A stretch of 64,000 nt of DNA from an uncultured Candidatus Rokubacteria bacterium (lineage in GTDB: Bacteria; Methylomirabilota; Methylomirabilia; Rokubacteriales; CSP1-6). This document shows, one piece after another, positions 22,233 through 43,213 of this stretch; position 1 is the stretch's first letter; each line of letters starts with the position of its first letter. A program made the translations under genes and the position numbers. The stretch spans positions 352,001-416,000 of the forward strand of contig CAVXJS010000011.1 in the NCBI GenBank assembly GCA_963762145.1. The letters run 5' to 3'. The notes under the pieces are model-generated. The model made no database searches and was not told where the DNA came from. It saw nothing but the letters and a program-made list of their open reading frames with translations.

Positions 22233-22804
22233 CCCGGCCGCTCGTCGCGGCCCTTCTCCTGCTGTCGGCCCTCGCCGGCCCCGTCTGGGCTGGTGCCCCC
22301 ACCGAGCAGCTCCGCGCCTACACCGACCGGGTCGTCAAGATCCTGGAAGACCCCGCGCTCGACCAGGCGCAGCGCAAGACCGAGATCCGCGCGGTGGCGC
22401 TGGAGGCCTTCGACGTGGGCGAGGCGGCGCGCCGCGCCCTCGGGACGCACTGGTCCAAGCGCACCCCCGCGGAGCGCGAGGAGTTCGCCGGGCTGTTCCA
22501 GGGGCTGCTCGAGCGCGGCTATCTCTCGCGCATCGGTGAGTACGGCGGCGAGCGCGTGCAGTACGTGGCCGAGCGGGTGGACGGCGAGTTCGCCGTCGTG
22601 CGGGCCCAGATCGTCACCGCCAAGGGGACCCAGATCCCGATCGAGGCCCGCGTGGTGCGAAAGGGCGAGCGCTGGCTCATGTACGACGTGCTGATCGAGA
22701 ACGTGAGCCTGGTGGCGAGCTACCGCTCGCAGTTCGACCGCGTGATCCGCACCTCCTCCTACGAGGACCTGGTGCGTCGTCTCAAGGAGCGCGGGCAGCC
22801 CTAG
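22229..22804 (+). CDS. MlaC/Ttg2D-like periplasmic lipid-binding protein; start codon not found
   Basis: Signal-like LVAALLLLSALAGPVWA, ARRALG.HW, W.MYDVLIENVSLV.SYRSQF. Confidence 0.8.
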   Translation, partial: LARPLVAALLLLSALAGPVWAGAPTEQLRAYTDRVVKILEDPALDQAQRKTEIRAVALEAFDVGEAARRALGTHWSKRTPAEREEFAGLFQGLLERGYLSRIGEYGGERVQYVAERVDGEFAVVRAQIVTAKGTQIPIEARVVRKGERWLMYDVLIENVSLVASYRSQFDRVIRTSSYEDLVRRLKERGQP

Positions 22805-23343
22805 CCGCGCTCCCCGCGCGGGCGCTCCGTGAGGAGCGGCACCAGGAGGCTCACCGCCAGCTCCGCCTTCAGCCGGAGCTCCTCGTCCCGGTTGCCCGCG
22901 ACCGGGTGCGCGATCACCGCGAAGGGGTAGTCGGCCCGGCCGTTCGCCTCGGCCATCGCCCGGGCACTCGCCTCGAACCGGTCGGTGATGACCGCGACGG
23001 CGGGGATGCCGAGCCTTTCGGCGGACATGGCGTCGTGCAGACTGCACGACGAGCAGCTCCCTCAGTCTCCGATCGCGGAGATGATCGCGTCGGCGCCGCT
23101 CATCTCGCCGAGCATCTCCGCGGGCGCGGGGCGGCTCGAGTCGGGCTTGCGCCGGCGAATGAACTCCCGGACGCCGTACCGCGACGCGAGGATCCGCTCG
23201 ACGTGGTTGTAGAAGCCGGCCGTCCCGATCTTGGCGTTGTCGAGGAGGCCGACGACGGTGCCCTCCAGCCCTCGGAGCGGCGCGGCCAGGGTCATGGCGT
23301 CGCCCTCGGCGTCGAGTCGCGGATCCAGCACTCTCAGGCCCAT
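22801..23343 (-). CDS. UGSC-family selenoprotein, copy A (180 aa with Sec)
   Basis: ORFs 23062..23343 and 22801..23028 are in frame across TGA 23062-23064, giving SAIGD-U-GSCSSCSLHDAMSAERLGIP. Confidence 0.9.
23031..23051 (-). promoter_or_regulatory. Candidate SECIS hairpin, copy A
   Basis: CGTCGTGCA-GTC-TGCACGACG, perfect 9-bp stem 10 nt after the UGA. Confidence 0.8.
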
Positions 23344-23355
23344 GGCTTCCCCTTA

Positions 23356-24390
23356 TCAGATCGTCTTGGTGACGGCGAGCGACTTGGCCCCGTACCACGG
23401 CGGCACCACGACTCCGAACCCCCCGGCCGGGCCTCCCGCGGCCACGATCAGCAGGTCGTCGGGCGACCGAAGCGCGGGGTACACCGTCTCCTCGTCCTTC
23501 CGCGCGGCCACCGCGCTCTTGCCGGCCGTGCGCCACTCGCCCCGGCGCACGCGGGCGGCCTCGAAGACGTAGGCACGGATGTCCGCCTTGCTCCACCCCG
23601 CGGCGCCGATCGTGTCGCGCTGCTGCTTGGCGATCACGAGGGCGTAGTTGCCGGCCCAGATGGAGTACGTGAGCATGTTGGCGCGGATGGCGGCCACGTA
23701 GGTATCGAGGATCTCCCGGGGATCGTGTGTCCACTCGTTCATGATCTGGTGCGGCGACTCCGCCGCGAGCACCGTCACCGCCGAGGCGCCCGCCGGCACG
23801 CCCCGCTCGGCCGCGAGCGACGGCCAGGGACTGTCCTCCTCGTCCTCGGCCACGCAGAAGGTGAACTTGCCGGGATGCCCGAGGGTCGACCGATCGAGCC
23901 GGCCGGGAACGCCGCCGAGCACGTTGATGATGAGCAGCCGGAGCGCCCGCCCGATCGTGGCGTTCGCCCGGCTGCCATTGGCGAGCACGTTGTGGGTCGC
24001 GTTCATCCCGATCGCGGTGCGGACCGGGCCGTTGACCACGACGAACGGGGCACTCCCGCCGGTACTCGCGGTGCACCCGTGTAGCCCGTACGCCGGCTCG
24101 CACACCGCCCGCACGAGCGCCATCACGACCGGCATGTACTCGGGGCGGCACCCGGCCATGACCGCGGCGATGGCCGTCTTCTCTGCGGTGATGCGCCGCC
24201 GCCGCACCGGCTCGACCCCGACGACGTCCCCCGCGCCGACGGTGGCCGCGTCGAGGAACCGCCGGACCAGCTCCTCGGTGGGCGGGACGATCGGCAACCC
24301 GTCCGTCCAGCCATTGCGCTGGAACAGCTCGTTCGCCTCGTGAGGGTCGGCCACGTCGTAGGCCGCCGACCGCAGCGCCTGCTCGGTCAT
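23356..24390 (-). CDS. UGSC-associated uncharacterised protein, copy A
   Basis: GWTDGLPIVPPT, AVMAGC, VNGP, RANATIGRALRL, DRSTLGHPGK, AEDE; paralogous to 41631..42674 and to the C-terminal part of 37024..38616. Confidence 0.9.
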   Translation of the reverse strand: MTEQALRSAAYDVADPHEANELFQRNGWTDGLPIVPPTEELVRRFLDAATVGAGDVVGVEPVRRRRITAEKTAIAAVMAGCRPEYMPVVMALVRAVCEPAYGLHGCTASTGGSAPFVVVNGPVRTAIGMNATHNVLANGSRANATIGRALRLLIINVLGGVPGRLDRSTLGHPGKFTFCVAEDEEDSPWPSLAAERGVPAGASAVTVLAAESPHQIMNEWTHDPREILDTYVAAIRANMLTYSIWAGNYALVIAKQQRDTIGAAGWSKADIRAYVFEAARVRRGEWRTAGKSAVAARKDEETVYPALRSPDDLLIVAAGGPAGGFGVVVPPWYGAKSLAVTKTI

Positions 24391-24453
24391 CGCGGAACGA
24401 ATGATGACACCGGGTGCCGCTCGACACCAGCCCGAAGCGCGACGTCGCCGAAG

Positions 24454-25047
24454 CTAGTTGGAGGAGCGGGGCGACGACGACTTGGTGACCCACACCACCC
24501 ACGGCAGCGTCGCCGAGTCCTCCCGGCGCACGTCCACGCGATACCCCTGGCTGCGCATGCTGGCGGCGAGGCGGTCGGCCGCGCCATCGTCCGCGAAGGC
24601 GGCCGCACGCACCCAGGGCGCGGTGTCGCCGGCGACGGACCGGACCGGCTTCGGCTCGAGGTCTTCGCGCCGGGGGGCGAGCGCGAGGGCGTCGTTCAGC
24701 CACGTCTCGCGGAGCTCCGGCGACGCCACGGCCCAGGGCTCGTCGCGGGAAAGCGGAGCCGGAGCCTGCGGGAGGAGATAGGGTAATCCGAGGAAGACGA
24801 TCACGAACGTGGGAACGAATGCCGCGAGGGCGGTCTGGATCCCACGCAGCACAGGCGTGCCGGACTCCGGGACCTCTTCCCCTTCTTCCCCTTCTTCTTC
24901 TTCCTTCTCGTCGTCACTCCCGAGGGGATATCGGGCTTCGAGCGAGAGGCGGACATCGTCGAGGAGATCCCGTTCCGGTGCGAGCCACTCCCCAAGCTCG
25001 GTGGGCTCAACGGGACCCGCGGTACTCGCGATCGCTTCACGTTCCAC
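24454..25047 (-). CDS. Single-TM protein with acidic N-region and C-terminal SPOR-like domain
   Basis: TM segment AAFVPTFVIVFLGLPYLL; WVRAAAFADDGAADRLAASMRSQGY..WVVWV. Confidence 0.6.
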   Translation of the reverse strand: MEREAIASTAGPVEPTELGEWLAPERDLLDDVRLSLEARYPLGSDDEKEEEEGEEGEEVPESGTPVLRGIQTALAAFVPTFVIVFLGLPYLLPQAPAPLSRDEPWAVASPELRETWLNDALALAPRREDLEPKPVRSVAGDTAPWVRAAAFADDGAADRLAASMRSQGYRVDVRREDSATLPWVVWVTKSSSPRSSN

Positions 25048-25187
25048 GGCTGACCACCCCTTGCCTGCCGGGCAGGTCTGACTCGCTGCTGCTCGGGCCG
25101 GGTAAACGTATCCACCCGGGGGCGGCTTGTCAAGCGATGTTTTCGGGAAAGTCGGCGTAAGTATGTGACTCTGTTCATGTATAGCTC

Positions 25188-25206
25188 TGTGGATGAATGT
25201 GGATAA
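25188..25206. promoter_or_regulatory. Tandem DnaA-box-like sites
   Basis: TGTGGATAA (perfect TTATCCACA complement) at 25198-25206 and TGTGGATGA at 25188-25196, in an AT-richer intergenic region. Confidence 0.55.
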
Positions 25207-25231
25207 CATCCCCCACGAGCTGCCGGATCGA

Positions 25232-25966
25232 TCAGAGCGCGACGTCGCCGAGGAAGATGCGCTTGACCTCGGCGGACTGGAGCAGCTCCGCCGACGATCC
25301 GGTCAGGATGGTCCGGCCCGATTCGAGGATGTAGCCGCGATCCGCGAGCCGGAGCGCGAGCTCCACGTTCTGCTCGATGAACACGATGCTGATGCCCTGC
25401 TCGTCGCGGATGCGCCGCATCAGGCCGCCGAGCTGCTGCACGACGAGGGGAGACAGCCCGAGGAACGGCTCGTCGATCATCAGCAGGCGCGGGCGCGCCA
25501 TGAGCCCGCGCGCGATTGCCACCATCTGCTGCTCGCCGCCCGACAGGGTGTGCGCGAGCTGGGTCCGGCGGGACGCGATGATCGGGAACAGGCGCTCGAC
25601 CTGCGCCAGGGACTCCGCCCGGTGGGGGCGCGCGACCGGATTGTGGGCGCCCAGCAGCACGTTGTCGAGCACGGTGAGGAACGGGAACAGGCGCCGGCGC
25701 TCCAGCACGTGCGCGAGGCCTTCCCCCGCGGTGCGGTGGGCGGGCAGTCCGTCGATGCGCTTGCCGAGGAGGGTGATGTGGCCCGCGCGGGGCGCGATCA
25801 GCCCCGAGATCGAGTTCATCAGGGTCGACTTGCCCGCCCCGTTCGGTCCCAGGACCGCGACGATCTCGCCCTCGCCCACGTGCATCGCGGCCTGCCACAG
25901 CACCTGGAAGTCGCCGTAGGCGACGTCGAGGCCGTCGACCGATAGCATGGGCGTCGCGGCGCTCAC
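25232..25966 (-). CDS. Branched-chain amino acid-type ABC ATPase (LivF-like)
   Basis: GPNGAGKST, LSGGEQQM, IDEPFLGL. Confidence 0.9.
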   Translation of the reverse strand: MSAATPMLSVDGLDVAYGDFQVLWQAAMHVGEGEIVAVLGPNGAGKSTLMNSISGLIAPRAGHITLLGKRIDGLPAHRTAGEGLAHVLERRRLFPFLTVLDNVLLGAHNPVARPHRAESLAQVERLFPIIASRRTQLAHTLSGGEQQMVAIARGLMARPRLLMIDEPFLGLSPLVVQQLGGLMRRIRDEQGISIVFIEQNVELALRLADRGYILESGRTILTGSSAELLQSAEVKRIFLGDVAL

Positions 25967-26685
25967 TGGGTGTACGCCTTGCCGAGGTAGGCGTCGACGA
26001 CCCGGGGGTCGCGCGTCACCACGTCGGGCGTGCCGTCGGCGATCTTCTCGCCGAGGTAGAGGGCGACGATGCGCTGGGCCACCGCGGTGATGACCCGCAT
26101 GTTGTGCTCGATGACCAGGAGGGTGAGGCCGCCGCGGTGCAGGTCGCGGACGAGCTGCACCAGGCCGGGAATGCTGCGCTGGTCCACGCCGCCGGTCACC
26201 TCGTCGAGCAGGAGGACCCGCGGCTCGGTGGCCAGCGCGCGGGCCAGCTCGAGGCGCTTGCGCTGGCCGGTGGACAGGGTGCGCGCGTAGGCGTCCGCCT
26301 TCTCGCCGAGCCCCACGCGGTCGAGCAGCTCGCGGGCGCGGGCGCGCGCGTGGCGCACGTCGTGGGTGCGGGTGAGCGCGCCGACCATCACGTTGTCCAC
26401 CACGGTGAGCCCCGCGAACGGCCGCAGCTTCTGGAACGTCCGCGCCACGCCGAGGCGGCATACCCGGTCCGGCGAGAGGCCGGTGAGCGGGCTGCCGTCG
26501 AGCCGCACCAGGCCCGCGTCGGGGCGATAGAATCCGCTGATGATCTCGAACAGGGTCGACTTGCCGGACCCGTTCGGCCCGATGATGCCGACCAGCTCCC
26601 CGGGCGCCACGTCGAAGGAGACGTCGCGATTCGCGGTGACCCCGCCGAAGCTCTTGGTGATCCCCGCGACGGAGAGCAGGCTCAC
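25963..26685 (-). CDS. Branched-chain amino acid-type ABC ATPase (LivG-like)
   Basis: GPNGSGKST, ARTFQ, LLDE, IEHNM, AYLG. Confidence 0.9.
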   Translation of the reverse strand: MSLLSVAGITKSFGGVTANRDVSFDVAPGELVGIIGPNGSGKSTLFEIISGFYRPDAGLVRLDGSPLTGLSPDRVCRLGVARTFQKLRPFAGLTVVDNVMVGALTRTHDVRHARARARELLDRVGLGEKADAYARTLSTGQRKRLELARALATEPRVLLLDEVTGGVDQRSIPGLVQLVRDLHRGGLTLLVIEHNMRVITAVAQRIVALYLGEKIADGTPDVVTRDPRVVDAYLGKAYTQ

Positions 26686-27656
26686 GCGGCCGGCCTCGGG
26701 GCGGGGCGCCGGCGCAGGAGCGCGCCGACCCAGGGGAGCAGGCCTTGCGGCGCGACGCGCATGGTCACGATGAGCGCGGTCCCGTAGATGATCAGGTAGA
26801 TCCCCACGAGCCCGGCCCCGATCCCGCCGAAGCGAGCGCGGAGCGATGTCTCCAGGAGCGTGATGAGGGCGGCGCCGAGGAACGGCCCGAGCGGGGTCCC
26901 GATGCCCCCGAGGATCGCGAACAGGCAGAAGCGGACCGACAGGTCCACCGAGAAGACGTACAGGGGGTCCACGAAGCCGACGTACTGGGTCCAGAGCGTG
27001 CCGCACACCGCGGTGAGCGCGGCGCTGACCGCGATGGCGGCGACCTTGAGGCGGCGGGCCGGCACGCCGAGCGAGAGGGCGGCGTCCTCGTCTTCGCGCA
27101 CCGCGGCGAGCTGATAGCCGCGACGCGAGCGCTCGAGGTACAGCTGGACCAGGTAGAGCACGGCGGCGAGGACGAGGATGAGGTACACCCACACCCGCTT
27201 GTCCACGATCCCCAGCGTCCAGAGGCCTGGGCGGAAGGGAACCGGGATCCCCTCCGATCCGGAGGTGAAGGCGCGCCAGCGGCTCGCCACGATGAGCAGC
27301 ACCTGGGAGAGGGCGATCGTCGCGAGCCCGAAGTAGGGGCCGCGGAGACGGTTGCTGAGAAAGCCGAGGATGACGCCGAACGCGGTGGCGAGCGCGGCGC
27401 CGACCAGCAGGCCGATCCAGGGCGAGACCCCCCAGCGCGTGCCGAGGATCGCCGCCGCGTAGGCGCCGAGCCCGAAGAAGGCGGCGTGGCCGAGCGAGAC
27501 CTGGCCGGCGTAGCCGCCGGCCACGTTCCAGGCCGCCCCGGTCGTGCCCCACAGCAGGATCAGGACCAGGCCGTCGAGGAGGAAGGCGTCGCGGACCACG
27601 AGCGGCCCGAGGGCGGCCGCGGCGAAGAACGCGAGGGCGGGCCACGGGCCTCTCAC
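26682..27656 (-). CDS. ABC permease (LivM-like)
   Basis: GYAGQVSLGHAAFFGLGAY, GPYFGLATIA, AVREDEDAA..LG. Confidence 0.9.
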   Translation of the reverse strand: MRGPWPALAFFAAAALGPLVVRDAFLLDGLVLILLWGTTGAAWNVAGGYAGQVSLGHAAFFGLGAYAAAILGTRWGVSPWIGLLVGAALATAFGVILGFLSNRLRGPYFGLATIALSQVLLIVASRWRAFTSGSEGIPVPFRPGLWTLGIVDKRVWVYLILVLAAVLYLVQLYLERSRRGYQLAAVREDEDAALSLGVPARRLKVAAIAVSAALTAVCGTLWTQYVGFVDPLYVFSVDLSVRFCLFAILGGIGTPLGPFLGAALITLLETSLRARFGGIGAGLVGIYLIIYGTALIVTMRVAPQGLLPWVGALLRRRPAPRPAA

Positions 27657-28534
27657 GTGCCGATCACCTCGGCCCCGCGCTGGCCGAACAGGCCGGCGGG
27701 ACGGATCACGAGGATCGCGATGAACAGGAGCAGGTAGAGCACTTCCTTCCACGCGGTCCCGATGACGTAGGACCCCACGACCTCGACGAAGGCCACGACG
27801 AGGCTGGCGATCAGCGCGCCGACCATGTCCCCGAGTCCGCCCAGCACCACCGCCACGTAGGCGATCAGCACGAACTGGAGCCCGATCGACGGGTAGACGG
27901 GATAGATCGGCGCGAGCACCACCCCGGCCACCCCGACGCAGGTGATGCCGACCGCCCACGTCATGGCGAAGACCCGGCCGGTGTCGATCCCCATGAGCGA
28001 CGCCGCGTGCCGGTCCTGCGCGGTCGCCCGCATGATCTTCCCGGCGTAGGACCACCGCATGAAGGCGAAGAGCCCGGCGGTGAAGAGGACCGCGACCACG
28101 AACGCGGCGATCTGGGCGAGGTTGATCGCCACGCCGCCGAAACGGACGACGACCGCGTAGTAGCTGGTCCGGACGAACTGGGCGTCCGCGCTCCAGAGCA
28201 CGAGGGCGAGCGCCTGGAGCGCGATCGACAGCCCGACGGTCGTGAAGATCTGCACGCTGTGCGAGGCGTGGATCACCGGCTGCATGACCAGGCGGTAGCT
28301 GAGCCATCCGCCCCCGAAGATGACGGGCAGCCCCAGCACGAGCGTCACGTAGGGATCGAGCCCGAGGAGGGTGAATGACCAGAAGGCGAGATACATGCCC
28401 AGCATGAGGAACTCGCCGTGCGCGAAGTTGACCACCCGCATCACCCCGAAGATGAGGGTGAGGCCCACCGCGATGAGCGCGTAGATGCCGCCCAGCAGGA
28501 TGGTGGAGGCGAGAAGCTGGGGAATGACGTGCAT
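27653..28534 (-). CDS. ABC permease (LivH-like)
   Basis: YALIAVGLTLIFGVMRVVNFAHGE, RATAQD..A.LMGI. Confidence 0.9.
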   Translation of the reverse strand: MHVIPQLLASTILLGGIYALIAVGLTLIFGVMRVVNFAHGEFLMLGMYLAFWSFTLLGLDPYVTLVLGLPVIFGGGWLSYRLVMQPVIHASHSVQIFTTVGLSIALQALALVLWSADAQFVRTSYYAVVVRFGGVAINLAQIAAFVVAVLFTAGLFAFMRWSYAGKIMRATAQDRHAASLMGIDTGRVFAMTWAVGITCVGVAGVVLAPIYPVYPSIGLQFVLIAYVAVVLGGLGDMVGALIASLVVAFVEVVGSYVIGTAWKEVLYLLLFIAILVIRPAGLFGQRGAEVIGT

Positions 28535-28618
28535 GGTCGGTTGATCAGCCGACAGCGCGACGCCCCGGGGTGGCGCCCCGGGGCGTACGAGCTGAGATCG
28601 GCGGATCGGCGGGGCGCG

Positions 28619-29893: not shown

Positions 29894-29993
29894 GCCTGCT
29901 CTCCTCTCGTTGGTCCGGGGCACTGCGATTGGGACGGGCGGCGGCAGCGACAACCCGACGCACCGGGCGGCCAGTGTACCGCAGGTGGCCGCC

Positions 29994-30968
29994 CTACTGC
30001 TCCTGCTCCTGCTGCTGCTGGGCCGCGATCTCCTCGGCGGCCAGCTTGAGCCGGTCCCTCCGGCGCTCCGGGATCTCCTGGTAGACCGGGACGTCGATCT
30101 GCTCCATCTCCTCGTGCAGCGCCGAGATGTCCTTGGGGGTGGATTCCTGGGTGCGCACCTCGGTGCGCAGGGTCTCGTCCGCGTTGCCGCGGAAGATGCC
30201 CTTGTTGGGCGGCACGTCGTCGTAGTGCCGGCCGTGGCCCACCACCACGTAGTGGCCGTCGATCTCGCGGTTGTGGGTCGGATCGAACGGCACCCAGCCC
30301 GCGGTGGGAGAGTAGAACTCCACCCACGCGTGGCTCTGGGCCGTCTCCCCGTCGCGCGCCGGCATGTGCAGGTAGCCGCTCACGTAGCGGCACGGGATCT
30401 GGCGCAGCCGCAGGAGGCCGAGCATGAGGTGGGTGAAGTCCTGGCAGACGCCCGCCCCCGCGGCGAGGAAGTCGTCGCTGGTGGATTCGTAGCTGGTCAC
30501 GTTCTTCCGGTAAGTGAAGTGCTCGCCGATGTGCCGTCCGCACGCGCGCACCAGCTCGCCGAGCGGCGCGGTCGCCGGGACGGGCACCCCCTGCGCGAAC
30601 TTGCGCAGCGCCGCGCTCGCCCGCACCGGCCCGTCGAAGGCCAGGAAGTCGAGCAGAGGGTAGGGCGGCTCCGGATACGGACGCGGGTCGGTGACGCTGG
30701 CCAGCGCGGGCGCGGCCGGATGGGTGCTCACCGCGGAGCGAGCCACCACCTCGATGCGGTCGTGGAAGTGGACGATCGTGAAGTGGTGCACCACGTTGTG
30801 GTTCCAGTCCCGGTAGCGCGAGGTCTTGGTCGGCGGGCCCACCGCGAGCACGAAGGACTGGAGCGTCTGGTCCCCGGTGGTCTTGGGCTGCATGCGCAGC
30901 TCGAGGAATGACTCCCGGATGTAGGCGTCGTAGGCCAGCGACAGGGTGTGCTCGATCTCGACGAACAT
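29994..30968 (-). CDS. Transglutaminase-like protein with Gln-rich C-terminal tail
   Basis: GVCQDFTH, RYVSGYL, SHAWVE, FDPTH, GR.YDDVPP; ends QQQQEQEQ. Confidence 0.9.
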   Translation of the reverse strand: MFVEIEHTLSLAYDAYIRESFLELRMQPKTTGDQTLQSFVLAVGPPTKTSRYRDWNHNVVHHFTIVHFHDRIEVVARSAVSTHPAAPALASVTDPRPYPEPPYPLLDFLAFDGPVRASAALRKFAQGVPVPATAPLGELVRACGRHIGEHFTYRKNVTSYESTSDDFLAAGAGVCQDFTHLMLGLLRLRQIPCRYVSGYLHMPARDGETAQSHAWVEFYSPTAGWVPFDPTHNREIDGHYVVVGHGRHYDDVPPNKGIFRGNADETLRTEVRTQESTPKDISALHEEMEQIDVPVYQEIPERRRDRLKLAAEEIAAQQQQEQEQ

Positions 30969-34165: not shown

Positions 34166-34564
34166 TCAGCTCGCCCTGCCCTTGGCGGCGGCGCGCTCGA
34201 GGAAGCGGGCGAGGTCGGCCACCATGAACCGCTCGTGCCGTCCCTCCGCGATCTTCTCCACCTCGTCCCACGCCTCGACCTCGAAGAGGAAGCGCCGGCC
34301 GTCGGTCTCCCGCAGCACCGCCTTGGCGCGCACGCGCATGCCCGGCGGCGTGGCGGCCAGGTGACGCACGTCCACCCCGGTGCCCACGGTGGCCGCGCCG
34401 GGCGCCAGGTGCGGGACCATCACCGCGTGAGCCGCGTGCTCGAGCAGGTTGATCACGAACGGGGTGGCGAAGACGGTGACGCCGGGATTCCCGAGGGCGT
34501 CGGCGGTGAGCTGGCGCGTGACGACGCGCTCGACGGTGGCGGCCTGCCCGGGCTCGAGCGGCAT
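34166..34564 (-). CDS. FlK-type (fluoroacetyl-CoA) hot-dog thioesterase
   Basis: VFATP...E, TVG..V.VRHLAATP.G, G.HER. Confidence 0.85.
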   Translation of the reverse strand: MPLEPGQAATVERVVTRQLTADALGNPGVTVFATPFVINLLEHAAHAVMVPHLAPGAATVGTGVDVRHLAATPPGMRVRAKAVLRETDGRRFLFEVEAWDEVEKIAEGRHERFMVADLARFLERAAAKGRAS

Positions 34565-34626
34565 GGGTGTTCTTCTACCCCGATTGCCGCGCCAGGTCAA
34601 CGGGCCGGGGCACGTATACTTGCCCG

Positions 34627-35805
34627 GTGCCCGTCCTCCTGGCCGCCCTCGGCGCGCTGCTCGTCTCGCTCGACTCCGCGATCAACATCGCGCTTCCCGC
34701 GATGGCCACCGCCTTCGGGGTCGGCCCGGCGGAGATCCGCTGGGTCATCATCTGCTACGTCCTCACCTACGCCTTCACCGCGTTCGCGGCGGGCCTCCTC
34801 GCGGATCGTCTCGGCCCCGGGCCGGTCTTCACGGCCGGGCTCTGGCTCTGCGCGGCCACCTTCATCGGCTACGGATTCTCCTCCTCCTACGGCGTGACGC
34901 TGCTCCTGCGCGTGGCGCAGGGTGTGGGCAGCGGGATGGTCTACGGGACCGCGCCCGCGCTGGTGACGCTGTCGCTCCCGCCCGCGCGGCACGGCCGCGG
35001 GCTCGGCACGATGAGCCTGGGCATCGGGGTCGGCCTCGGTGTGGGCCCGGTGGTCGGCGGTTTGCTCGTGGACGCCTTCGGCTGGCCCGCATCCTTCGTG
35101 TTCCGCGCGCCGCTGTTCCTGCTCCTGGCGGTGCTCGCCCTCACCTCCTTCGGCCGGGTCGCCGGCACCGCGCCCACGCCGCGCCGGCTCGCGATGGCCG
35201 ATCTGCTGCGCCTGCCCGTGCTCCGCGCCGGCACGCTCGCGTTCCTCTCGCAGTACGCGCAGTTCGCGGTCTGGCTGCTCATGCCCTTCTTCCTGGTGAC
35301 CGCGCGCGGCCTCTCGCCCAGCGTGGGCGGGGTCGTCTTCGTGCTCACGCCGCTCGCCACCGCGCTCGCGGCGCCGCTCGGCGGGGCGCTCACCGATCGC
35401 ATCGGTCCGCGGTGGCCGCTGCGCATCGGGCTGGCGGTCGAGGCGGCGGGGCTGCTCGCGATCGGCACGGTCGGTGAGGCGACGCCGATCGCGCTCGTGG
35501 GCGCCGCGATGGCCATGGTGGGCCTCGGGGCCGGCCTCTTCCAGGTGCCCAACCTGGCCCTCATGATGGCGGCGTTCCCGCCCGCGCAGCAGGGCGCAGC
35601 GGGCGGGCTCGCATTCCTCGGGCGCACGCTGGGCAGCGCGGTGGGCGTGCAGATGACCGCGCTGCTCTTCGACGCGCGACTGCCGCGCGACGGCTTCCTC
35701 GCCGCCTTCCACGCCGCCTTCGTGGCCGCCGGTCTCGTCTGCCTGCTCGCGGCGGCTCTGGCGCTGCTCCCGACGCGGTCGTCCGCCCCCCGCGGCGGCC
35801 GGTGA
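34627..35805 (+). CDS. MFS transporter (DHA2-like, shortened)
   Basis: LDSAINIALP, GLLADRLG, RVAQGVG, GPVVGGLL. Confidence 0.85.
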   Translation: MPVLLAALGALLVSLDSAINIALPAMATAFGVGPAEIRWVIICYVLTYAFTAFAAGLLADRLGPGPVFTAGLWLCAATFIGYGFSSSYGVTLLLRVAQGVGSGMVYGTAPALVTLSLPPARHGRGLGTMSLGIGVGLGVGPVVGGLLVDAFGWPASFVFRAPLFLLLAVLALTSFGRVAGTAPTPRRLAMADLLRLPVLRAGTLAFLSQYAQFAVWLLMPFFLVTARGLSPSVGGVVFVLTPLATALAAPLGGALTDRIGPRWPLRIGLAVEAAGLLAIGTVGEATPIALVGAAMAMVGLGAGLFQVPNLALMMAAFPPAQQGAAGGLAFLGRTLGSAVGVQMTALLFDARLPRDGFLAAFHAAFVAAGLVCLLAAALALLPTRSSAPRGGR

Positions 35806-37015
35806 GCGAGCCCGGCTCGCCGTACCGCTGGGCGATCCTCGCGGTCTGCGTCGCGGGTTTCATGCAGACCCACGTGCACCGCGTGGGCTTCGCTCCGCTC
35901 ATCCCGACCTTCATCGCGGACATGGGCCTCACCTACGCGGCGGCCGGGACGATCATGGCCGCGTACTTCTGGAGCTACGCGGTGATGCAGATCCCGGTGG
36001 GCGTGCTCACCGATCGGCTCGGAGCGCGCCGGGTGATGCTCGGCTGCATGGGGGTGCTGGCGGTGGGCGCGGTGGCCTTCTCGCTGAGCCAGACCTACGC
36101 GCAGAGCCTCATTGCGCGCTGCCTGCTCGGCACGGGCGCGGCGGCCACGTGGCTGCCGGGTCTGCGGCTGATCCAGGAGTGGTTCGCGCCGCGCGAGCGC
36201 GGGCTCGCCACCGGGCTCTTCTCGGCGGGCGGCGGCGTGGGCGGCACCGCCGCGCTGCTGCTCCTGCCGGTCATGGCGGAGCATCTCGGCTGGCGGGTGG
36301 GCTACGCGCTGCTCGCGGTGCCGGTGCTGGCCACGATGGTCGCGGTCTGGCTCCTGGTGCGGGCCGAGCCTCGCGCGCGCGACGGGGGGCGGTGGCGGGC
36401 CTGCCCACCCAGTTCCTCGCCGGCATGCGGGAGGTGCTCGCGACGCCCGCGCTCTGGCCCTTCAACCTCTATGTGCTCTTCTCCTACGGCGGTTACTTCG
36501 CGCTCCTCACCTGGCTGCCCACCTTCCTCGTGAAGTCGGAAGGGCTGACGCAGGCGGGCGCGGGCTTCGTGACCGCGCTCATCACCGGCGGCACCATCGT
36601 GTCGTGGCCGCTGGCCGGGTACCTCTCGGATCGCTTCGGGCGCCGCAAGCCGATCTTCCTGGTGAGCCAGGCCACGAGCGTGCTGGTGTGCCTGGCCTTC
36701 GCCTATCTGGTGCCGGGCGCCGGGCTCGCGGGCACCGCGGCGGTCGCCGCGCTCACCGGGCTCCTGCTCGGAGGGTTGATCACTCCGTTCGTGATGGTGA
36801 CCGAGCTGGTGCCCCCGCGGCTGATGGGGACCGCGTCCGGCGTGGTCAACGCGTTCTGCTTCGTGGGCGGGTTGCTGGTGCCGGTGGCGCTCGGCTACGC
36901 CCTCGACGTGACCGGGAGCTTTCCCGCCGCCTTCACGGCCTGCGCGGTCTTCGAGCTGGTCGCCCTCGGCATCGCGGTGTTTGCGCGGGAAACCGGACGC
37001 CGGGCCGCGGTATGA
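35802..37015 (+). CDS. MFS transporter, frameshifted near 36400
   Basis: QIPVGVLTDRLGARR, WF.PRERG.A.G, GYLSDRFGRRK. Confidence 0.85.
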
Positions 37016-37023
37016 TGGCGGCC

Positions 37024-38616
37024 ATGGAGATCCTCGACCCGGTCGGCTCGACGTCCGCGGCATCCCGGACGCTGGCTCCACGGCCCGCGACGCTGGCGGG
37101 CGCGGTCATCGGCGTGCTCGACAACTCGAAGCCCAATGCCCGCGTCCTGCTGGAAGGCGTGGCCCGCGCGCTCGCGCAGCAGGTCGGGGCCCGTGATGTG
37201 CGGATCTGGGGCAAGCCCGGCGCCTCCATCGGCGCCACGCCCGCCGTCCTGGACGAGATCGCCGCGCAGTGCGGCGCCGTCCTCACCGCCTCCGCCGACT
37301 GAGGGTCGTGCACGTCGTGGAGTATCCACGACGCCACGCAGCTCGAAGGGCGGGGGATCGCCACCGTCGTCCTGGGCACGCATGAGTTCCGCCCCCTCGC
37401 GCTCGCCGAGGCGAAGGCCAAGGGGCTCCCCGACCTGGGAATCGTCACGGTGCCGCATCCCATCGGCGGCATCGCCGAGAAGCTCGTCACCGGCAAGGCC
37501 CTGAACGCGGTGGACGCGGTGCTGGCCGCGCTCACGCGCGGCCCCGCGGGCGGGGTCGGCGCGGGCGCGGTCGAGGGCACGGTCGCGCGGCACCGGATCC
37601 CCGACGACCTGCTCGAGTTCCAGGGCTTCATGATGGAGCGGGGCTGGGGGGACGGCCTGCCCATGATCCCGGCCACGCCCGAGCGCGTCGCGGCCATGCT
37701 CGCGGGCACCGGCCGGCCCGCGGGCGATCTGGTGGCGATCCTGCCGCCGCGGCTCGGCCGGGCGACGGTGGAGCGCGTCGCGGTCAACGCGGTGCTGGCC
37801 GGCGCGCTGCCCGAGCATTTCCCGGTCATCCTCGCCGCGGTCGAGGCGGTGGCGCAGCCCGCGTTCAACCTCCAGGCGATCCAGACCACCACCCATCCCT
37901 GCTCGCCGCTGATCATCGTCAACGGGCCGATCGCGGCCCGGCTCGGCATCAACGGCGCGGGCAACGCGCTCGGGCAGGGCCATCGCGCCAACGCGGTGAT
38001 CGGGCGGGCGCTGCGGCTCGTGCTGCAGAACACGGGCGGGGCGCGGCCGGGGAGCGAGGACCGGGCCACCCAGGGCCATCCCGGCAAGTACAGCTACTGC
38101 GTCGCCGAGAACGAGGCCGCCTCGCCGTGGGAGCCGCTCTCGGTCGAGCGCGGATTTCCCGCGACGGTGAGCACGGTGACGGTGTGCGCCTCCGAGAGCC
38201 CGCACAACATCAACGACCACGGCTCGTCCACCCCGGAGGGCATTCTCACCACGGTGGCGGGCACCGCCGCGACGGTGGGCTCCAACAATATCTACCTGGG
38301 CGGCGAGCCGCTGGTGATCCTGGGGCCGGAGCACGCGGCCACCGTGGCGGGCGGAGGCTGGAGCAAGGCGGACTTCAAGCGCGCGCTCTGGGAGCGGGCG
38401 CAGGTCCCGCTCTCGCGCTTCGATCCGGCCAACCTGGCCCGCTTCGAGGTGATCCACCCGGCCGGGTTCAAGGACCAACCGCCGGAGACGCTGGCCCCGC
38501 TCGCGCGGGCGTGGACCGACCTCATGATCGTGGTGGCGGGCGGGGCCGGGAAGCACTCCGTGCTGATCCCCACCTTCGGAGCCACGCGCTCCGTCACGCT
38601 GCGGATCGAGGCCTGA
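37024..38616 (+). CDS. Fusion of UGSC selenoprotein domain and partner domain, copy B (about 530 aa with Sec)
   Basis: MEILDP..LDNSKPN..TASAD-TGA(37300-37302)-GSCTSWSIHDA..PHP continues in frame into ORF 37450..38616 (GWGDGLPMIPAT, GHPGK, AENE). Confidence 0.9.
37313..37333 (+). promoter_or_regulatory. Candidate SECIS hairpin, copy B
   Basis: CGTCGTGGA-GTA-TCCACGACG, perfect 9-bp stem 10 nt after the UGA. Confidence 0.8.
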
Positions 38617-38619
38617 GGG

Positions 38620-40248
38620 CTAGCGCGCGGGCGCGTAGAGGCGGGCGAAGTACTCCTGCACCATGCGGTCCGAGCTGAAGCGCTCGGTCGCCATCCGGAT
38701 CGAGGCGCGCATCATCGTGGTCCAGCGCGCGGGATCCGCGAACGCGGGCAGGACCTCTCCCTCGAGCGTCTCGTAGAGCGCGCGCAGGTCGCGCGCGTCC
38801 GGGTCGGGCGGGGTCGACTCGTCGCCGATCGCCCAGCCGGTGACGCCGTGCTCGCAGCCTTCCGGCCACCAGCCGTCCAGCACCGAGAGGTTCAGCGTGC
38901 CGTTCATCGCCGCCTTCATCCCGGAGGTGCCGCTCGCCTCCATCGGACGGCGGGGCGTGTTCAGCCACACGTCGGCGCCGCGGGTGAGCACGCGGCCCAG
39001 GGCCATGTCGTAGTCCTCGAGGAACGCCATGCTCTCGGGCCACTGCCGCAGCGCCGCCACCAGCCGCGCGATCACCGCCTTGCCCTCGTGATCCGCGGGG
39101 TGCGCCTTGCCCGCGAAGAGCACCTGGACGCGATGGCGCTTGACCAGCGCCGCGAAGCGCTCCGGGTCGCGCAGGAGCAGGTCGGGCCGCTTGTAGGTGG
39201 CCGCGCGGCGCGCGAAGCCGATGGTCGGCGCGGCCGGGTCGAGCCGCACGCCGGTGCGCCTGCGGACCTCCGCGAGCATCTCGGTCTTGAGGGCGCGCTT
39301 GGCCGCCAGCAGCCGCTCGTCGCTGCCCAGCCCGGCGGGGATGCGGGCGTCCTGCCAGGTTCCGGGGTGGACCCCGTTGGTGATCGCGATGATGGGCGCC
39401 GCCTCCTTCACGTGCGCCCACATGGCGCGCGCGGTCTCCCCGTGCAGCTGCGCCACCGCGTTGGCCAGGTGGGCCAGGCGCAGGCCGGCCACCGTCATGT
39501 TGAACGGGTCGCCGCCGATCTCGGCCAGCTCGCTCGGCACCAGCTCGCAGCCGGCTCCGAGGCGCCGCAGGTCCGCGAGCGAGTGCACCTCGTTGCCCGC
39601 GGGGACCGGGGTGTGGGTGGTGAAGACGATGCGCTCCCGCGCGGCCAGCCACGCGTCCCGGAAGGTCTGCCCGGCTTCCATGCGGTCGGCGATCATCTCG
39701 ATGCCCGCGAAGACGGCGTGGCCCTCGTTGAAGTGGTAGCGCTCGACCGGCAGGTGGAGCGCGCGCAGCGCCCGCACCCCGCCGATCCCGAGCAGCATCT
39801 CCTGCGCCACGCGACAGTCTGGCCGCGGGTCGTAGAGTCGCCGGGTGATCCACAGGTCGCGCGGATCGGTGGGCTCGAGCAGGTAGAGAGGCGCGATCGC
39901 GTAGCGGCCCACGCGCCAGACGCGGCACTCGACCTCGCGCGCCGCAACGCGCACGCGCACCCGCGCGCCGGTGTCGGTGAGGACGTCGGGCTTCTGATCG
40001 GTCCACTCGTCGTGGGGATAGCCGTCGGCGCCGATGTGCTGGGAGGTGTAGCCCTGGCTCCAGCGGAGTCCGATGCCGACGACGGGCAGGCCGAGGTCGC
40101 CCGCCGACTTCATGAAGTCGCCCGCGAGCACGCCGAGGCCGCCCGCGTAGGAGTGGAAGGCCTCGTGCAGGCCGTACTCCATCGAGAAGTAGGCGACCAG
40201 CGGAGGGCGGGCCGGGGCGTTCAACGAGGCGGTCACGTCTTCGAGCAT
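38620..40248 (-). CDS. glgP: Alpha-glucan phosphorylase (compact form)
   Basis: YFSMEYG, YAGGLG.LAGD, NEGH, ARR..YKR, AGKAHP, EASGTSGMKAAMNG. Confidence 0.9.
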   Translation of the reverse strand: MLEDVTASLNAPARPPLVAYFSMEYGLHEAFHSYAGGLGVLAGDFMKSAGDLGLPVVGIGLRWSQGYTSQHIGADGYPHDEWTDQKPDVLTDTGARVRVRVAAREVECRVWRVGRYAIAPLYLLEPTDPRDLWITRRLYDPRPDCRVAQEMLLGIGGVRALRALHLPVERYHFNEGHAVFAGIEMIADRMEAGQTFRDAWLAARERIVFTTHTPVPAGNEVHSLADLRRLGAGCELVPSELAEIGGDPFNMTVAGLRLAHLANAVAQLHGETARAMWAHVKEAAPIIAITNGVHPGTWQDARIPAGLGSDERLLAAKRALKTEMLAEVRRRTGVRLDPAAPTIGFARRAATYKRPDLLLRDPERFAALVKRHRVQVLFAGKAHPADHEGKAVIARLVAALRQWPESMAFLEDYDMALGRVLTRGADVWLNTPRRPMEASGTSGMKAAMNGTLNLSVLDGWWPEGCEHGVTGWAIGDESTPPDPDARDLRALYETLEGEVLPAFADPARWTTMMRASIRMATERFSSDRMVQEYFARLYAPAR

Positions 40249-40273
40249 ACAACGGGGCGGGCCGGAGGCGGGC

Positions 40274-41539
40274 TCAGGGGCGGGGCTTCCAGGGGTGGGT
40301 GATGAGGCGGGCGCCTCGCTGCCAGGTCAGGTAGGCCCAGGCCCACTCGAAGAGGACGAGGAACCGATTGCGGAAGCCGATGAGGAACAGGATGTGCACG
40401 AAGACCCAGGCGAGCCACGCGGGCAGGCCGTGGATCTGGAGACGGCCGACCACCGCCACCGCGGCCGCGCGGCCGATGGTGGCCATGGTCCCGCGATCCC
40501 GGTAGCGGAACGGCCGGGTCGGCAGGCCGGCCAGGAGCCGGCGCACGTTCGCCGCGACGGCCTGCCCTTGCTGGATCGCCACCGGCGCCAGGCCCGGGAG
40601 CGGCTGCCCGTCGGGTCCCGGACAGCTCGACATGTCGCCGATCGCGAACACCATCGCGTGGCCGGGGATGGAGAGATCCGGCTCCACGAGCACCCGGCCC
40701 GCACGATCGAGCGGCGTCCCGAGCGCGCGGGCGAGGGGGGAGGCGGCCACGCCCGCCGCCCACAGCACGGTGCGGGCGCGGATCTGCTCGCCGCCGAGCC
40801 AGACCGCGTCGTGGGTCACCCGCGTGACCGGCGTCCCGGTGCGAATCTCCACGCCGAGACGGGCGAGGGCGGCGGCCGCGTGGCCGGACAGCGGATCGGG
40901 AAAGCTCGCGAGCAGGCGCGGACCGGCCTCGACGAGGACGATCCGCGCCTTCGTGGGATCGATGACCCGGAAGTCCCGCGCGATCGTCTCGCGCGAGATC
41001 TCCGCCAGCGCGCCCGCGAGCTCGACGCCGGTCGGTCCGCCGCCGATGACGACGTAGGTCAGGAGCGCCCGCTGCTCGGCCCCGTCCCGCTCGCGCTCCG
41101 CCTCCTCGTAGGCCAGGAGCACGCGTCGCCGGATCTCGAGCGCGTCCTCCAGGCTCTTGAGGCTCGGGGCCAGCTCCTCCCAGTCGCCGTGGCCGAAGTA
41201 CGAGTTGCCCGCGCCCGCGGCCAGCACCAGCGCGTCGTAGGTCAGCTCGCCGTCGTCCAGGATCACGCGACGGCCGGCCACGTCCACCGACCGGACCTCG
41301 GCGAGCAGGACGGTGACGTTGGCGGCGCGCCTCAGGACGGAGCGGAGCGGGGTCGCGATGTTCGACGGATTGAGGGCGGCGGTGGCGACCTGGTAGAGCA
41401 GGGGCTGGAAGAGGTGGTGGTTGCGCCGGTCGAGCAGCGTGACACGCGCCCAGCTTCCGGTGAGCGCGCGGGCGGCGGAGAGCCCGCCGAATCCGCCGCC
41501 GACGATGACCACGTGCGGTCGCTGCGCTCCCGTGCTCAC
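40274..41539 (-). CDS. ndh: Type II NADH dehydrogenase-family FAD oxidoreductase
   Basis: GGGFGG, NHHLFQPLLYQVAT, GGGPTGVELAG, A.QQG, G.MATIGR. Confidence 0.85.
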   Translation of the reverse strand: MSTGAQRPHVVIVGGGFGGLSAARALTGSWARVTLLDRRNHHLFQPLLYQVATAALNPSNIATPLRSVLRRAANVTVLLAEVRSVDVAGRRVILDDGELTYDALVLAAGAGNSYFGHGDWEELAPSLKSLEDALEIRRRVLLAYEEAERERDGAEQRALLTYVVIGGGPTGVELAGALAEISRETIARDFRVIDPTKARIVLVEAGPRLLASFPDPLSGHAAAALARLGVEIRTGTPVTRVTHDAVWLGGEQIRARTVLWAAGVAASPLARALGTPLDRAGRVLVEPDLSIPGHAMVFAIGDMSSCPGPDGQPLPGLAPVAIQQGQAVAANVRRLLAGLPTRPFRYRDRGTMATIGRAAAVAVVGRLQIHGLPAWLAWVFVHILFLIGFRNRFLVLFEWAWAYLTWQRGARLITHPWKPRP

Positions 41540-41630
41540 CCGGCCATCTTCCGAGCGCGCCCGGGGGGTGTCAACCCTTGACAGGACGCGGGGTTGGACA
41601 TAGGGTGACCCCGGACAGGAGGATCTGGGC

Positions 41631-42674
41631 ATGGCCACGCGGATCAGCTCCCAGCGGTACGCCGTCGAGGACTTCAACGAGGCGCTCGAGCTCTGCTACA
41701 CCCGCGGCTGGACCGACGGGCTGCCGGTCGTGCCGCCCACGGAGCCGGCGGTGCGCGCGATGCTGGACGCGGTGGGGCTCGAGGCCGACGCGCAGGTCGC
41801 CTTCATCACGAATCGTCAGGTCGCCATCAGCGCCGAGAAGGTGGCGATCAACACGGTGATGGCCGGCTGCCGGCCCGAGCACATGCCGGTGGTGCTGGCC
41901 GCGGTCGAGGGCATCGCCGATCCGCGCTGGGGCTATCACGGACCGGCCACGTCCACCGGCGGCGCGGGCGTGCTGATGATCGTCAACGGGCCCATCGCGC
42001 GGCGGCTCGACTTCAACTGCGGCGACAACCTCTTCGGCCCGGGCTGGCGCTCCAACGCCACGGTGGGCCGCGCGGTGCGCCTCGTGATGCGCAACGTGAT
42101 CGGCACCATTCCGGGGCGCCTCGATCGCGGCACGGTCGGCCACCCCGGCAAGTACACCTACGTGATCGCGGAGAACGAGGCGGAGAGCCCGTGGACGCCG
42201 CTGCACGCGGAGCGCGGCTGCCGGCCGGAGGACAGCGCGGTGACCGTCATGGCCGCGCTGGGACCGAACCAGTTCTACAATCAGCTCTCGAGCACCGCGG
42301 CGGGTGTCCTGGGCACGATGTGCGACGCCATGCGCTACCCCGGCATGGTGGGCCAGCCGAACTACTGCGTGGTGCTGGCCGGCGAGCACATGCGGACCAT
42401 CGCGGCGGACGGCTGGTCCAAGTCCGACATCCGCAAGTACGTCTTCGAGAACACCACGAACACGATCGCGCATCTCAAGCGGACCGGGCGGCTGCCCGGC
42501 GCGATCAAGCCGGAGGACGAGACCGCGACCCGGCCCCTGGTGTTGACCCCGGACGACCTCCTGGTGGTGGCGGCGGGCGGTCGCGCGGGCTCATTCTCGT
42601 GCTACATCCCGGGCTGGGCGAGCCGGACGTCGTCGCAGGCGGTAACCACCGTGATCAAAGAGAGGAGAACATGA
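41631..42674 (+). CDS. UGSC-associated uncharacterised protein, copy C
   Basis: GWTDGLPVVPPT, VMAGC, VNGP, RSNATVGRAVRL, DRGTVGHPGK, AENE; AGGAGG RBS. Confidence 0.9.
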   Translation: MATRISSQRYAVEDFNEALELCYTRGWTDGLPVVPPTEPAVRAMLDAVGLEADAQVAFITNRQVAISAEKVAINTVMAGCRPEHMPVVLAAVEGIADPRWGYHGPATSTGGAGVLMIVNGPIARRLDFNCGDNLFGPGWRSNATVGRAVRLVMRNVIGTIPGRLDRGTVGHPGKYTYVIAENEAESPWTPLHAERGCRPEDSAVTVMAALGPNQFYNQLSSTAAGVLGTMCDAMRYPGMVGQPNYCVVLAGEHMRTIAADGWSKSDIRKYVFENTTNTIAHLKRTGRLPGAIKPEDETATRPLVLTPDDLLVVAAGGRAGSFSCYIPGWASRTSSQAVTTVIKERRT

Positions 42675-43213
42675 TGGCGGGCTTCGAGATCCTGGATCCG
42701 ACGGTCGAGCCCCGGCGCCAGCCGCTGACGTACGTGGCGCGGCCGGACTCGCTCAAGGGCAAGCGCATCGGCCTAGTGGAGAACACCAAGTACAACTCCG
42801 ACAAGCTGCTGGTCAAGATCGGCGACATCCTGAAGCAGGAGTACGGGGCGTCCGAGACCCGGATGTGGCGAAAGCACAACGCCGGCGTGCCCGCGCACGC
42901 GGAGATCCTCGAGGAGGCCAAGCGTACCGTCGACGTCGTCGTCGCCGGCATCGGGGACTGAGGGTCCTGCTCGTCGGGCAGTGTGCTCGACGGAATCGTG
43001 TTCGAGAAGGTCGGAATCCCGGCCGCGTCCATCGTCACCGATGTGTTCGAGGGTACCGGACACGCCATGGCCCAGTCCTGGGGCGTCCCGGAGTACCGTT
43101 TCCTGGCCCTGCCGCATCCGATCGCAAACCTGAGCGAGGCCGACCTCGACGCCCGCGCCCGCGCGATCGCGCCAGAGGTCGTCCGACTGCTATTGAAAGG
43201 CCAAGAAGGCTAA
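42671..43213 (+). CDS. UGSC-family selenoprotein, copy C (180 aa with Sec)
   Basis: GAGGAG RBS and ATGA overlap with the partner stop; AGIGD-TGA(42959-42961)-GSCSSGSVLDG in frame with ORF 42983..43213. Confidence 0.9.
42972..42992 (+). promoter_or_regulatory. Candidate SECIS hairpin, copy C
   Basis: CGTCGGGCA-GTG-TGCTCGACG, 9-bp stem with one G-U pair, 10 nt after the UGA. Confidence 0.8.

Follow-up and report, generated by a model that had tools for sequence, protein, structure and literature searches.

The window studied here is a stretch of 64,000 nucleotides from an uncultured Candidatus Rokubacteria bacterium (contig CAVXJS010000011.1 of assembly GCA_963762145.1, positions 352,001‒416,000 of the forward strand). 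Three loci within it pair the same two protein types, a small selenoprotein of the UGSC family, in which selenocysteine (Sec, U) is encoded by an in-frame TGA, and a larger partner protein, and we examine this pair as a candidate two-component enzyme. The genome is a 6.26-Mb assembly of 25 contigs that is 88% complete, with the window on contig 11, and close protein relatives carry Methylomirabilota or Rokubacteria labels.

The window copies were translated with TGA as Sec. At locus A, partner A (23356‒24390, minus strand, 344 aa) contains both conserved Cys residues of the partner family, in the motifs MAGC and FCVAE. It is followed by UGSC selenoprotein A (22801‒23343, minus strand, 180 aa; Sec codon TGA 23064‒23062, U94) after 12 nt that contain a Shine-Dalgarno-like AAGGGGA. 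Locus B is a single frame, fusion B (37024‒38616, plus strand, 530 aa), with a UGSC domain at about 37024‒37560, a linker and a partner domain at about 37594‒38613. The sole internal stop of fusion B is the TGA at codon 93 (37300‒37302, U93), and its terminal stop is also TGA. Residues 2‒171 form the Pfam UGSC match, and in the partner domain the MAGC cysteine is replaced (LAGALPE). At locus C, partner C (41631‒42674, plus strand, 347 aa) keeps the MAGC cysteine and has Val at the position of the second conserved Cys, and its stop codon overlaps the start codon of UGSC selenoprotein C (42671‒43213, plus strand, 180 aa; Sec codon 42959‒42961, U97) as ATGA, which was read directly. The first-pass annotation, made from the letters of the window, had described three loci pairing the same two protein types, the gene order and 12-bp gap at locus A, the fusion with UGSC N-terminal and the partner C-terminal at locus B, the overlap at locus C and an in-frame TGA at one aligned position in all three copies. 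All of these coordinates and features hold on translation: the layout of fusion B is borne out by Pfam and by the partner alignment, and D-U-G-S-C is invariant and occupies identical alignment columns in the three UGSC parts.

The three UGSC parts score 162.3, 167.3 and 195.4 bits against PF24696 (cut-off 25), with E-values from 1e-47 to 1e-57 (1.5e-47 for copy A), so the family match is far beyond chance. Against NCBIfam NF041046 (cut-off 125), two copies score 127.6 and 141.3 bits, and copy A scores 124.7 bits, 0.3 bits under the cut-off. The small parts of the window are thus plain Sec-encoded members of the known UGSC family (PF24696/NF041046). The three partners are 40‒45% identical to each other, with fusion B aligned over its C-terminal 340 residues. 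Judged by sequence identity (35‒45%), the three window copies are old paralogs, and since each has close orthologs elsewhere, they did not arise by a recent local triplication.

A six-frame search of the genome found eight UGSC loci, each with exactly one TGA within the match, and a search with the partner alignment placed a partner copy adjoining or fused at all eight. The loci called "triplicated" in the first-pass annotation are therefore real as three window loci, but they belong to a genome total of eight pairs. Four of the eight copies are split, with the partner gene preceding the UGSC gene (window A, window C, contig 21 and contig 14), and three are fused, with UGSC preceding the partner (window B, contig 7 and a diverged copy on contig 19 with U-G-T-C). 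The eighth is a fusion on contig 14 (370128‒371656, minus strand, locus L015) that is interrupted by four frame changes and keeps U-G-S-C, the hairpin described below and MAGC; it may be a pseudogene or result from faulty assembly. A check for the Sec machinery, suggested together with the three loci, found all components above their cut-offs: selA (577 bits), selB (363 bits), tRNA-Sec (69.3 bits) and selD (341 bits). selA adjoins selB, with tRNA-Sec nearby. selD lies on contig 11 at 419505‒420437 (locus L022), 3.5 kb past the window end, and has an in-frame TGA of its own, by which it is predicted to be a Sec-type selenophosphate synthetase. A second selD-like match, which has no TGA, is located on contig 14.

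Behind the UGA, each of the three window copies forms the same 9-bp stem closed by a G-U-N triloop, spanning +14 to +34 with numbering from the U. The Sec insertion sequence (SECIS)-like hairpins are located at 23031‒23051 (minus strand, copy A, GUC triloop, folding energy z −1.7 to −2.6), 37313‒37333 (plus strand, copy B, GUA triloop, z −1.4 and −2.9) and 42972‒42992 (plus strand, copy C, GUG triloop, z −0.2 to −0.7). In copies A and C the stem is present in both the minimum free energy and the centroid structures. Seven of the eight genome copies have the hairpin, and the contig 19 copy forms another stem. The 45 nt starting at the TGA were aligned for 66 genes, the three of the window and 63 TGA-type homologs found in other genomes (63 distinct sequences). 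G23 and U24 are invariant in the 66 aligned sequences; the six inner pairs are kept in 59‒63 of the 63 distinct sequences, and the three outer pairs in just 27‒38. At the pair 19‒29, UA occurs 46 times, GU seven times, AU six times, CG twice and UG once. The covariation score is 0.140 vs a shuffled mean of 0.063, slid registers give 0.004‒0.090, and none of 500 shuffles reached the observed score, a count that is not a probability since the shuffle control ignores relatedness. Both Cys-type homologs, from Candidimonas nitroreducens and Parapusillimonas granuli, are without this hairpin. Rfam gave zero family matches in the window. The element resembles the bacterial SECIS of the Escherichia coli fdhF type in being an in-coding hairpin a few nucleotides behind the UGA with G and U in the apical loop, but differs in its three-base loop on a stem of 6‒9 bp. 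In the fdhF SECIS, the bases corresponding to G23 and U24 are the SelB contact. The stem falls in the codons for S-x-S-V-(H/L)-D (window 42971‒42990; the same codons in 66 homologs), and in the proteins the residue after S-x-S is coupled to a residue two codons on, Gly or Ser with Leu and Cys with His, because the SECIS pair 19‒29 ties both codons. This is a protein covariation imposed by the RNA.

The partner family comprises 5076 clusters at 50% identity (E up to 1e-3), and its members are called "hypothetical protein" wherever the sources supply a name. In a scan with one genome per species, at least 597 partner relatives were found among at least 600 matched stretches, and the best 80 loci were studied with 4 kb on each side, using hidden Markov models (HMMs) built in this analysis. 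These loci span Methylomirabilota, Dehalococcoidia and other Chloroflexota, Pseudomonadota (Burkholderiales), Binatota (Binatia), Poribacteria, Acidobacteriota, SAR324, Entotheonella and others. UGSC is present at 65 of the 80 partner loci (66 matches in total), and 62 of the 66 matches lie on the same strand downstream of the partner, with gaps of 2‒737 nt, mostly below 150 nt; of the other four, three precede the partner on its own strand and one has the opposite orientation. The U position is TGA in 64 matches and Cys in two, and the motif reads UGSC in 62, UGGC in two and CGSC in two. Across 121 evenly sampled genomes of the phylum, UGSC occurs in 98 and the partner in 97, and presence agrees in 120 of the 121; the only mismatch (G105) is a genome that is 76% complete with its UGSC match at a contig edge. 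Family-level tallies are identical for UGSC and the partner (73/73 in the window's family and 0/15 in another). Kin in this sample are not independent, and without three unpublished genomes (G029, G058 and G101) the counts are 95 and 94 of 118. The first-pass annotation had regarded three patterns as damaging to its proposal. One was partner homologs mostly without UGSC genes, and the 65 of 80 loci and the 120 of 121 genomes show the reverse; another was homologs lacking Cys or TGA at the aligned position, and every one of the 66 matches has one or the other. The third was a genome without Sec machinery, and the machinery is present.

No third gene is universal. When the 1910 open reading frames (ORFs) of the 80 loci were clustered, no cluster reached more than 16 loci, the pair itself and antisense frames aside. 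The recurrent neighbours are short-chain dehydrogenases/reductases (SDRs; 16 loci), NHL propellers (16), luciferase-like monooxygenases (11) and CoA-transferases (6). A quick FastTree phylogeny of 111 partner domains (Shimodaira-Hasegawa-like support, midpoint root) scatters the copies of this genome across the family. Copy A groups with Sheuella and another Burkholderiales copy (74% identity), the contig 21 copy groups with Binatia, and the fused copies fall in basal groups with UGSC first. Architecture is strongly clustered on the tree, with 16 changes vs 41.9 for shuffles. The scattered positions indicate that the copies are old paralogs with some transfer between phyla. Such a history fits a substrate-diversified family without proving it.

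Several loci of this survey have features of their own. Locus L024, labelled Candidatus Acidoferrum sp., contains a partner-UGSC pair 95% identical to window locus C and a second partner copy upstream at a spacing equal to that of locus B in the window; its contig may be mis-binned or recently transferred. Six Poribacteria loci (L046, L049, L051, L053, L057 and L065) encode shorter partners with a deletion at about profile positions 282‒310 and have no UGSC within 4 kb, and this short-partner clade adjoins forms fused to thioredoxin (Trx) or peroxiredoxin (Prx) domains in the tree. Locus L101 contains three consecutive partner genes on one Chloroflexota contig, and tandem partner-partner proteins of about 710‒890 aa also occur (P0126, P0138, P0139, P0141, P0150, P0179, P0397 and P0398). 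The tandem proteins and the three genes in a row hint at a partner dimer.

Fusions connect the partner with further redox modules. Among 54 long representatives (partner relatives of at least 400 aa), 32 carry UGSC, three Redoxin/AhpC-TSA, two the catalytic chain of ferredoxin-thioredoxin reductase (FeThRed_B) and two Thioredoxin_8. Many of the 32 UGSC-bearing representatives begin right behind the Sec codon, which is the mark of truncated gene calls. Among 95 longer relatives (at least 609 aa), 73 carry UGSC, 13 a C-terminal flavoprotein like low-molecular-weight thioredoxin reductase and one Redoxin, whereas three carry odd single domains (two of them in apparently frame-shifted calls) and five carry nothing. 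The active-site motif C-A-x-C-D is present in all three of the thioredoxin reductase-like fusions inspected. In Candidimonas the gene order is partner, UGSC, CoA-transferase, reductase and binding protein. In Sheuella amnicola (locus L090, 6771‒8995) a thioredoxin reductase-like gene and then selB follow within 2.2 kb after the partner-UGSC pair. That a thioredoxin reductase-like neighbour is the rule was rejected, since a separate gene of this kind is found within 4 kb at only 4 of the 80 loci. The modules fused to the partner are all dithiol or selenol-thiol electron carriers or reductases, and it is chiefly for this reason that the partner is taken here to handle the substrate and to receive the electrons of a redox relay.

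Some fused forms stand apart from these. A diverged Cys-type fused subfamily (P0427‒P0487, 615‒717 aa), for which Kiritimatiellae is the sole taxon label, has a partner part covering only about 55% of the query; three of its members (P0475, P0461 and P0485) have a signal-like N-terminal segment and C-G-L-C replacing U-G-S-C. In P0199, P0254 and P0425 a Trx-like CxxC domain is fused, and a common P-G-C-G-S motif occupies the linker ahead of the partner domain.

The partner has no match at default thresholds in Pfam or NCBIfam and none in Pfam even at E up to 10; a profile search of the Protein Data Bank (PDB) gave zero matches at E up to 10, and the ESM Atlas gave no usable match among named clusters. 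One partner cluster in the Atlas is auto-named "Thioredoxin family protein" and has no Pfam family. The AlphaFold2 model of partner C is confident (pLDDT, predicted local distance difference test, 95.8; predicted template-modelling (TM) score 0.94), and a Foldseek search of the PDB with it gave no convincing relative (best E 1e-3, TM 0.29). Class I fumarate hydratase, cyanuric acid hydrolase, PrpD and PurM-like folds were considered and, at TM of at most 0.3, are not relied on as leads. The model of UGSC C (pLDDT 92.2) has five β-α units, Sec lying in the first turn of helix 3, and its nearest PDB folds are flavodoxins, WrbA and MsuE (TM 0.37‒0.47). As modelled, the UGSC protein is a flavodoxin-like α/β protein, and a thioredoxin fold was rejected on the same grounds.

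The complex was modelled on a relative, P0198, a natural Cys-type fusion whose halves were given as two chains. The complex score is 0.81 (runs 0.80, 0.81 and 0.81) vs 0.00 for the best control; the mark set for this score is reached by 51 of 78 solved complexes and by 2 of 108 mismatched pairs. At least 93% of the contacts agree between runs, and the pLDDT of the partner is 87 or higher. UGSC contributes to the interface its conserved N-terminal tail (residues 1‒12), G95, T98 and S99 around the C94-G-S-C97 loop, and an invariant Phe. The partner contributes the Trp of GWTDGLP, the PPTP stretch, R249, E256, N261, M264, T295/T296, N342 and R353. M264 is three residues ahead of the MAGC cysteine, and most of the partner interface columns are conserved. 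In this check of the heterodimer, which the first-pass annotation had proposed, the U/C loop region as modelled faces conserved partner residues, and the model supports, without showing it, that UGSC and the partner bind with the redox loop at their interface.

Taken together, we consider with a probability of roughly 0.6 that each locus encodes one enzyme of two parts, a two-component selenol/thiol reductase. Its redox chemistry, reductive direction, electron donor and substrates are all inferred here. Most likely the substrate pocket would belong to the large part (about 345 aa, from a widespread unnamed family). The small part (about 180 aa) would bring its Sec-Gly-Ser-Cys loop, located where a helix begins, up to the best-conserved partner residues, as in the complex model. 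The UGA would be decoded as Sec with the help of the hairpin that begins 13 nt downstream. In the proposed reaction, the selenolate may attack a substrate held by the partner, or an oxidised partner cysteine; the adduct would be resolved by the nearby Cys of U-G-S-C into a Se-S bond, and the Se-S bond would be re-reduced by a thioredoxin reductase/thioredoxin-type donor. The many old paralogs (eight in this genome) may serve different small imported compounds. The system can be described, with support from these data, as a thiol/selenol redox relay that combines a selenoprotein of a known family with a catalytic partner not yet characterised. The first-pass annotation had gone further with an "obligate two-subunit redox enzyme". 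The conserved pairing, the translational coupling and the common fusion agree with two subunits, but "obligate" is too strong, given the 15 of 80 loci without UGSC and the other fusions; its "redox enzyme" and its paralogs with "different substrates" are readings that we share as presumptive ones.

A bolder form of the two-component reductase reading, which we put forward only tentatively and hold to be considerably less probable than the pairing into one enzyme itself, is that UGSC is the subunit that carries the selenium in two-component reductases of a new class, whose catalytic subunit has a fold unseen in the PDB, that the paralogs transform different small organic compounds, and that Sec attacks the substrate directly. 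The hosts of such a class may be soil and ocean oligotrophs (Rokubacteria, SAR202-type Dehalococcoidia, Binatia and SAR324).

Several observations weigh against a two-component reductase. No UGSC is found within 4 kb at 15 of the 80 partner loci, four of which are cut by contig ends; by HMM search, UGSC is absent within this distance at five Dehalococcoidia and six Poribacteria partner loci. The fused UGSC domains of P0167, P0263 and P0234 have neither Cys nor Sec at the U position, and separate thioredoxin reductase-like genes near the pair are rare (4/80). The two conserved Cys residues of the partner are not universal: the first is missing in copy B, the second in copy C and both in the contig 19 copy, which means that a partner disulfide is not a universal target. 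The folding energy of hairpin C is weak (z −0.2 to −0.7) despite a stem in both predicted structures. The complex model consists of the single-chain halves of a relative, which the language model may know as one fold. Finally, searches of Pfam, NCBIfam, PDB sequences and, by Foldseek, PDB folds gave no convincing relative for the partner.

The missing cysteines, the lost redox residues, the UGSC-free partner clades and the rare reductase neighbours keep open a reading in which UGSC guards or regulates its partner. The partner would then catalyse a non-redox reaction on carboxylates, for instance as a hydrolase, isomerase or dehydratase, and UGSC would be its dedicated redox keeper or switch, outside the substrate chemistry. 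The near-invariant MAGC cysteine and the conserved Arg, Asn, Asp and Glu residues of the partner would suit such an enzyme, the redox modules fused to the partner are interchangeable, and some fused UGSC domains have lost Cys/Sec. The weak Foldseek leads are all carboxylate-handling dehydratases or hydrolases, but at TM of 0.3 or less they carry little weight. Furthermore, Sec is found in 64 of 66 genes despite the constraint of the SECIS on the coding sequence, which is more than a simple keeper seems to need, and the copies without the MAGC cysteine (B and contig 19) retain Sec. On balance we regard a keeper function as unlikely, while it is the strongest of the competing explanations.

Still less probable, in our view, is that the pair is an antioxidant or detoxifier, that is, a peroxidase, a reductase of sulfoxides or sulfenates, or a system dealing with metals or metalloids, and not a catabolic enzyme set. 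In the available text of two papers, most bacterial UxxC selenoproteins are listed as thiol oxidoreductases (PMC2398784, PMC13188914), and AhpC/TSA-Redoxin domains are fused to some partners. However, eight old paralogs per genome would be unusual for a detoxifier, and the neighbours (transporters, SDRs, NHL propellers, luciferase-like monooxygenases, CoA-transferases and FMN-dehydrogenases) fit a substrate-diversified metabolism better. It is highly improbable that the two genes lie side by side with unrelated functions, or that translation really ends at the TGA and the UGSC halves are remnants of a gene: public gene callers do split or truncate these genes and one contig 14 copy has four frame changes, but in every copy the halves on either side of the TGA both match the family profile, order, strand and spacing are conserved across phyla and fusions exist, a covarying SECIS-like hairpin follows the TGA in a genome with Sec machinery, and the complex model favours binding.

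The proposed two-component reductase resembles in outline the glycine, betaine, sarcosine and D-proline reductases (GrdB/GrdE and PrdB/PrdA), which combine a UxxC selenoprotein with a larger substrate-binding protein. These glycine/proline-type reductases occur in several substrate-specific sets and receive electrons from the thioredoxin system. The present pair differs from them in showing no sign of the pyruvoyl proprotein family and in its hosts, which are mostly aerobic soil and ocean lineages. A relationship of UGSC with GrdB/PrdB (PF07355) was rejected, since UGSC C matches only PF24696, and partner C nothing, in Pfam at E up to 10. The motif of PrdB is listed as UxxC in the available part of the 2008 survey discussed below (PMC2398784). 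With relays of thioredoxin reductase, thioredoxin and client (Msr, Prx and ArsC), the pair shares its proposed dithiol or selenol-thiol exchange via a CxxC/UxxC loop at a helix start and, in some lineages, a client fused to the reductase. The difference is that the fold of the UGSC carrier is not thioredoxin and that the partner, as client, has no recognised fold.

The UGSC family is known from metagenome selenoproteome surveys, and the available text of a 2026 review still gives it no function. In the accessible parts of the survey by Zhang and Gladyshev (2008, PMC2398784), it is among the five most numerous selenoprotein families in the Global Ocean Sampling (GOS) data, with 255 Sec vs 21 Cys forms, and no function is given there. 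The description of UGSC in the first-pass annotation as a predicted selenoprotein family of unknown function agrees with this literature, as far as its available text goes. The same paper guessed a thioredoxin fold for UGSC, from which the flavodoxin-like model of UGSC C differs, and here UGSC occurs with a fixed partner gene. A "UGSC/Unknown_1" fusion is mentioned there in one sentence and in Fig. S1A. Judged from the mention in the text, Unknown_1 probably corresponds to the partner domain of locus B. That mention, as far as the available text goes, comes without the split operon form, genome-wide pairing, paralog sets, other redox fusions or a structure. The find is therefore new only in part, because the family had been described before and a fusion of UGSC was noted in 2008. 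Our limited literature search gave no account of the operon form as a rule, near-perfect co-occurrence, multi-copy paralog sets, the SECIS hairpin, the flavodoxin-like fold of UGSC, the orphan fold of the partner, thioredoxin reductase fusions or the modelled interface. The novelty of the pair, which the first-pass annotation had left for a search to confirm, thus probably falls away for the fusion, of which a UGSC/Unknown_1 form has been in print since 2008, and stands, within that limited search, for pairing as a rule.

UGSC gains a fixed partner, a likely electron source suggested by the thioredoxin reductase-like fusions, and cultured hosts, which make the pair a testable enzyme system; Sheuella amnicola has the Sec-type pair, whereas Candidimonas nitroreducens and Parapusillimonas granuli have the Cys-type pair. 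If the bolder form of the two-component reductase reading is true, it would supply a function for a selenoprotein that is among the most abundant in ocean metagenomes and has been without one for about 20 years, and it would place a Sec attack like that of the glycine/proline reductases within an unrelated protein framework. Public annotation is also systematically wrong for these genes: fused genes are given a start behind the TGA, and free UGSC genes are split. None of the 120 database matches listed for fusion B covers more than 80% of the query, and all are called from behind the TGA, in line with the earlier remark that ordinary ORF calling yields fragments.

Around the window loci, two genes for major facilitator superfamily (MFS) transporters lie upstream of fusion B (34567‒37015, plus strand) and end 9 nt short of its start codon; of these, the second is divided between two frames (35802‒36533 and 36149‒37015). 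Two genes near locus C are given as context only: an NDH-2-like pyridine nucleotide-disulphide oxidoreductase, a flavoprotein (40274‒41677, minus strand), is divergent from it, and an α/β-hydrolase gene (43397‒44368, plus strand) lies downstream of UGSC C. Locus A lies downstream of a Liv-type ATP-binding cassette (ABC) transporter set, and the link between the two is weakened by an unrelated 251-aa ORF in between, which has a lower GC content at third codon positions. At 29994‒33366 (minus strand), in the interval from this transporter set to locus B, a gene for a circularly permuted ATP-grasp protein adjoins a transglutaminase-like gene. Several window genes look frame-shifted or cut, at 18508‒20747 (minus strand), at 35802‒37015 (plus strand, the split MFS transporter gene) and at 16828‒17571 (minus strand); an acyl-CoA dehydrogenase is spread over two overlapping ORFs, and the profile match of a CoA-transferase III comprises the last 222 positions only. 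These broken-looking genes may reflect assembly errors of the metagenome bin or real decay.

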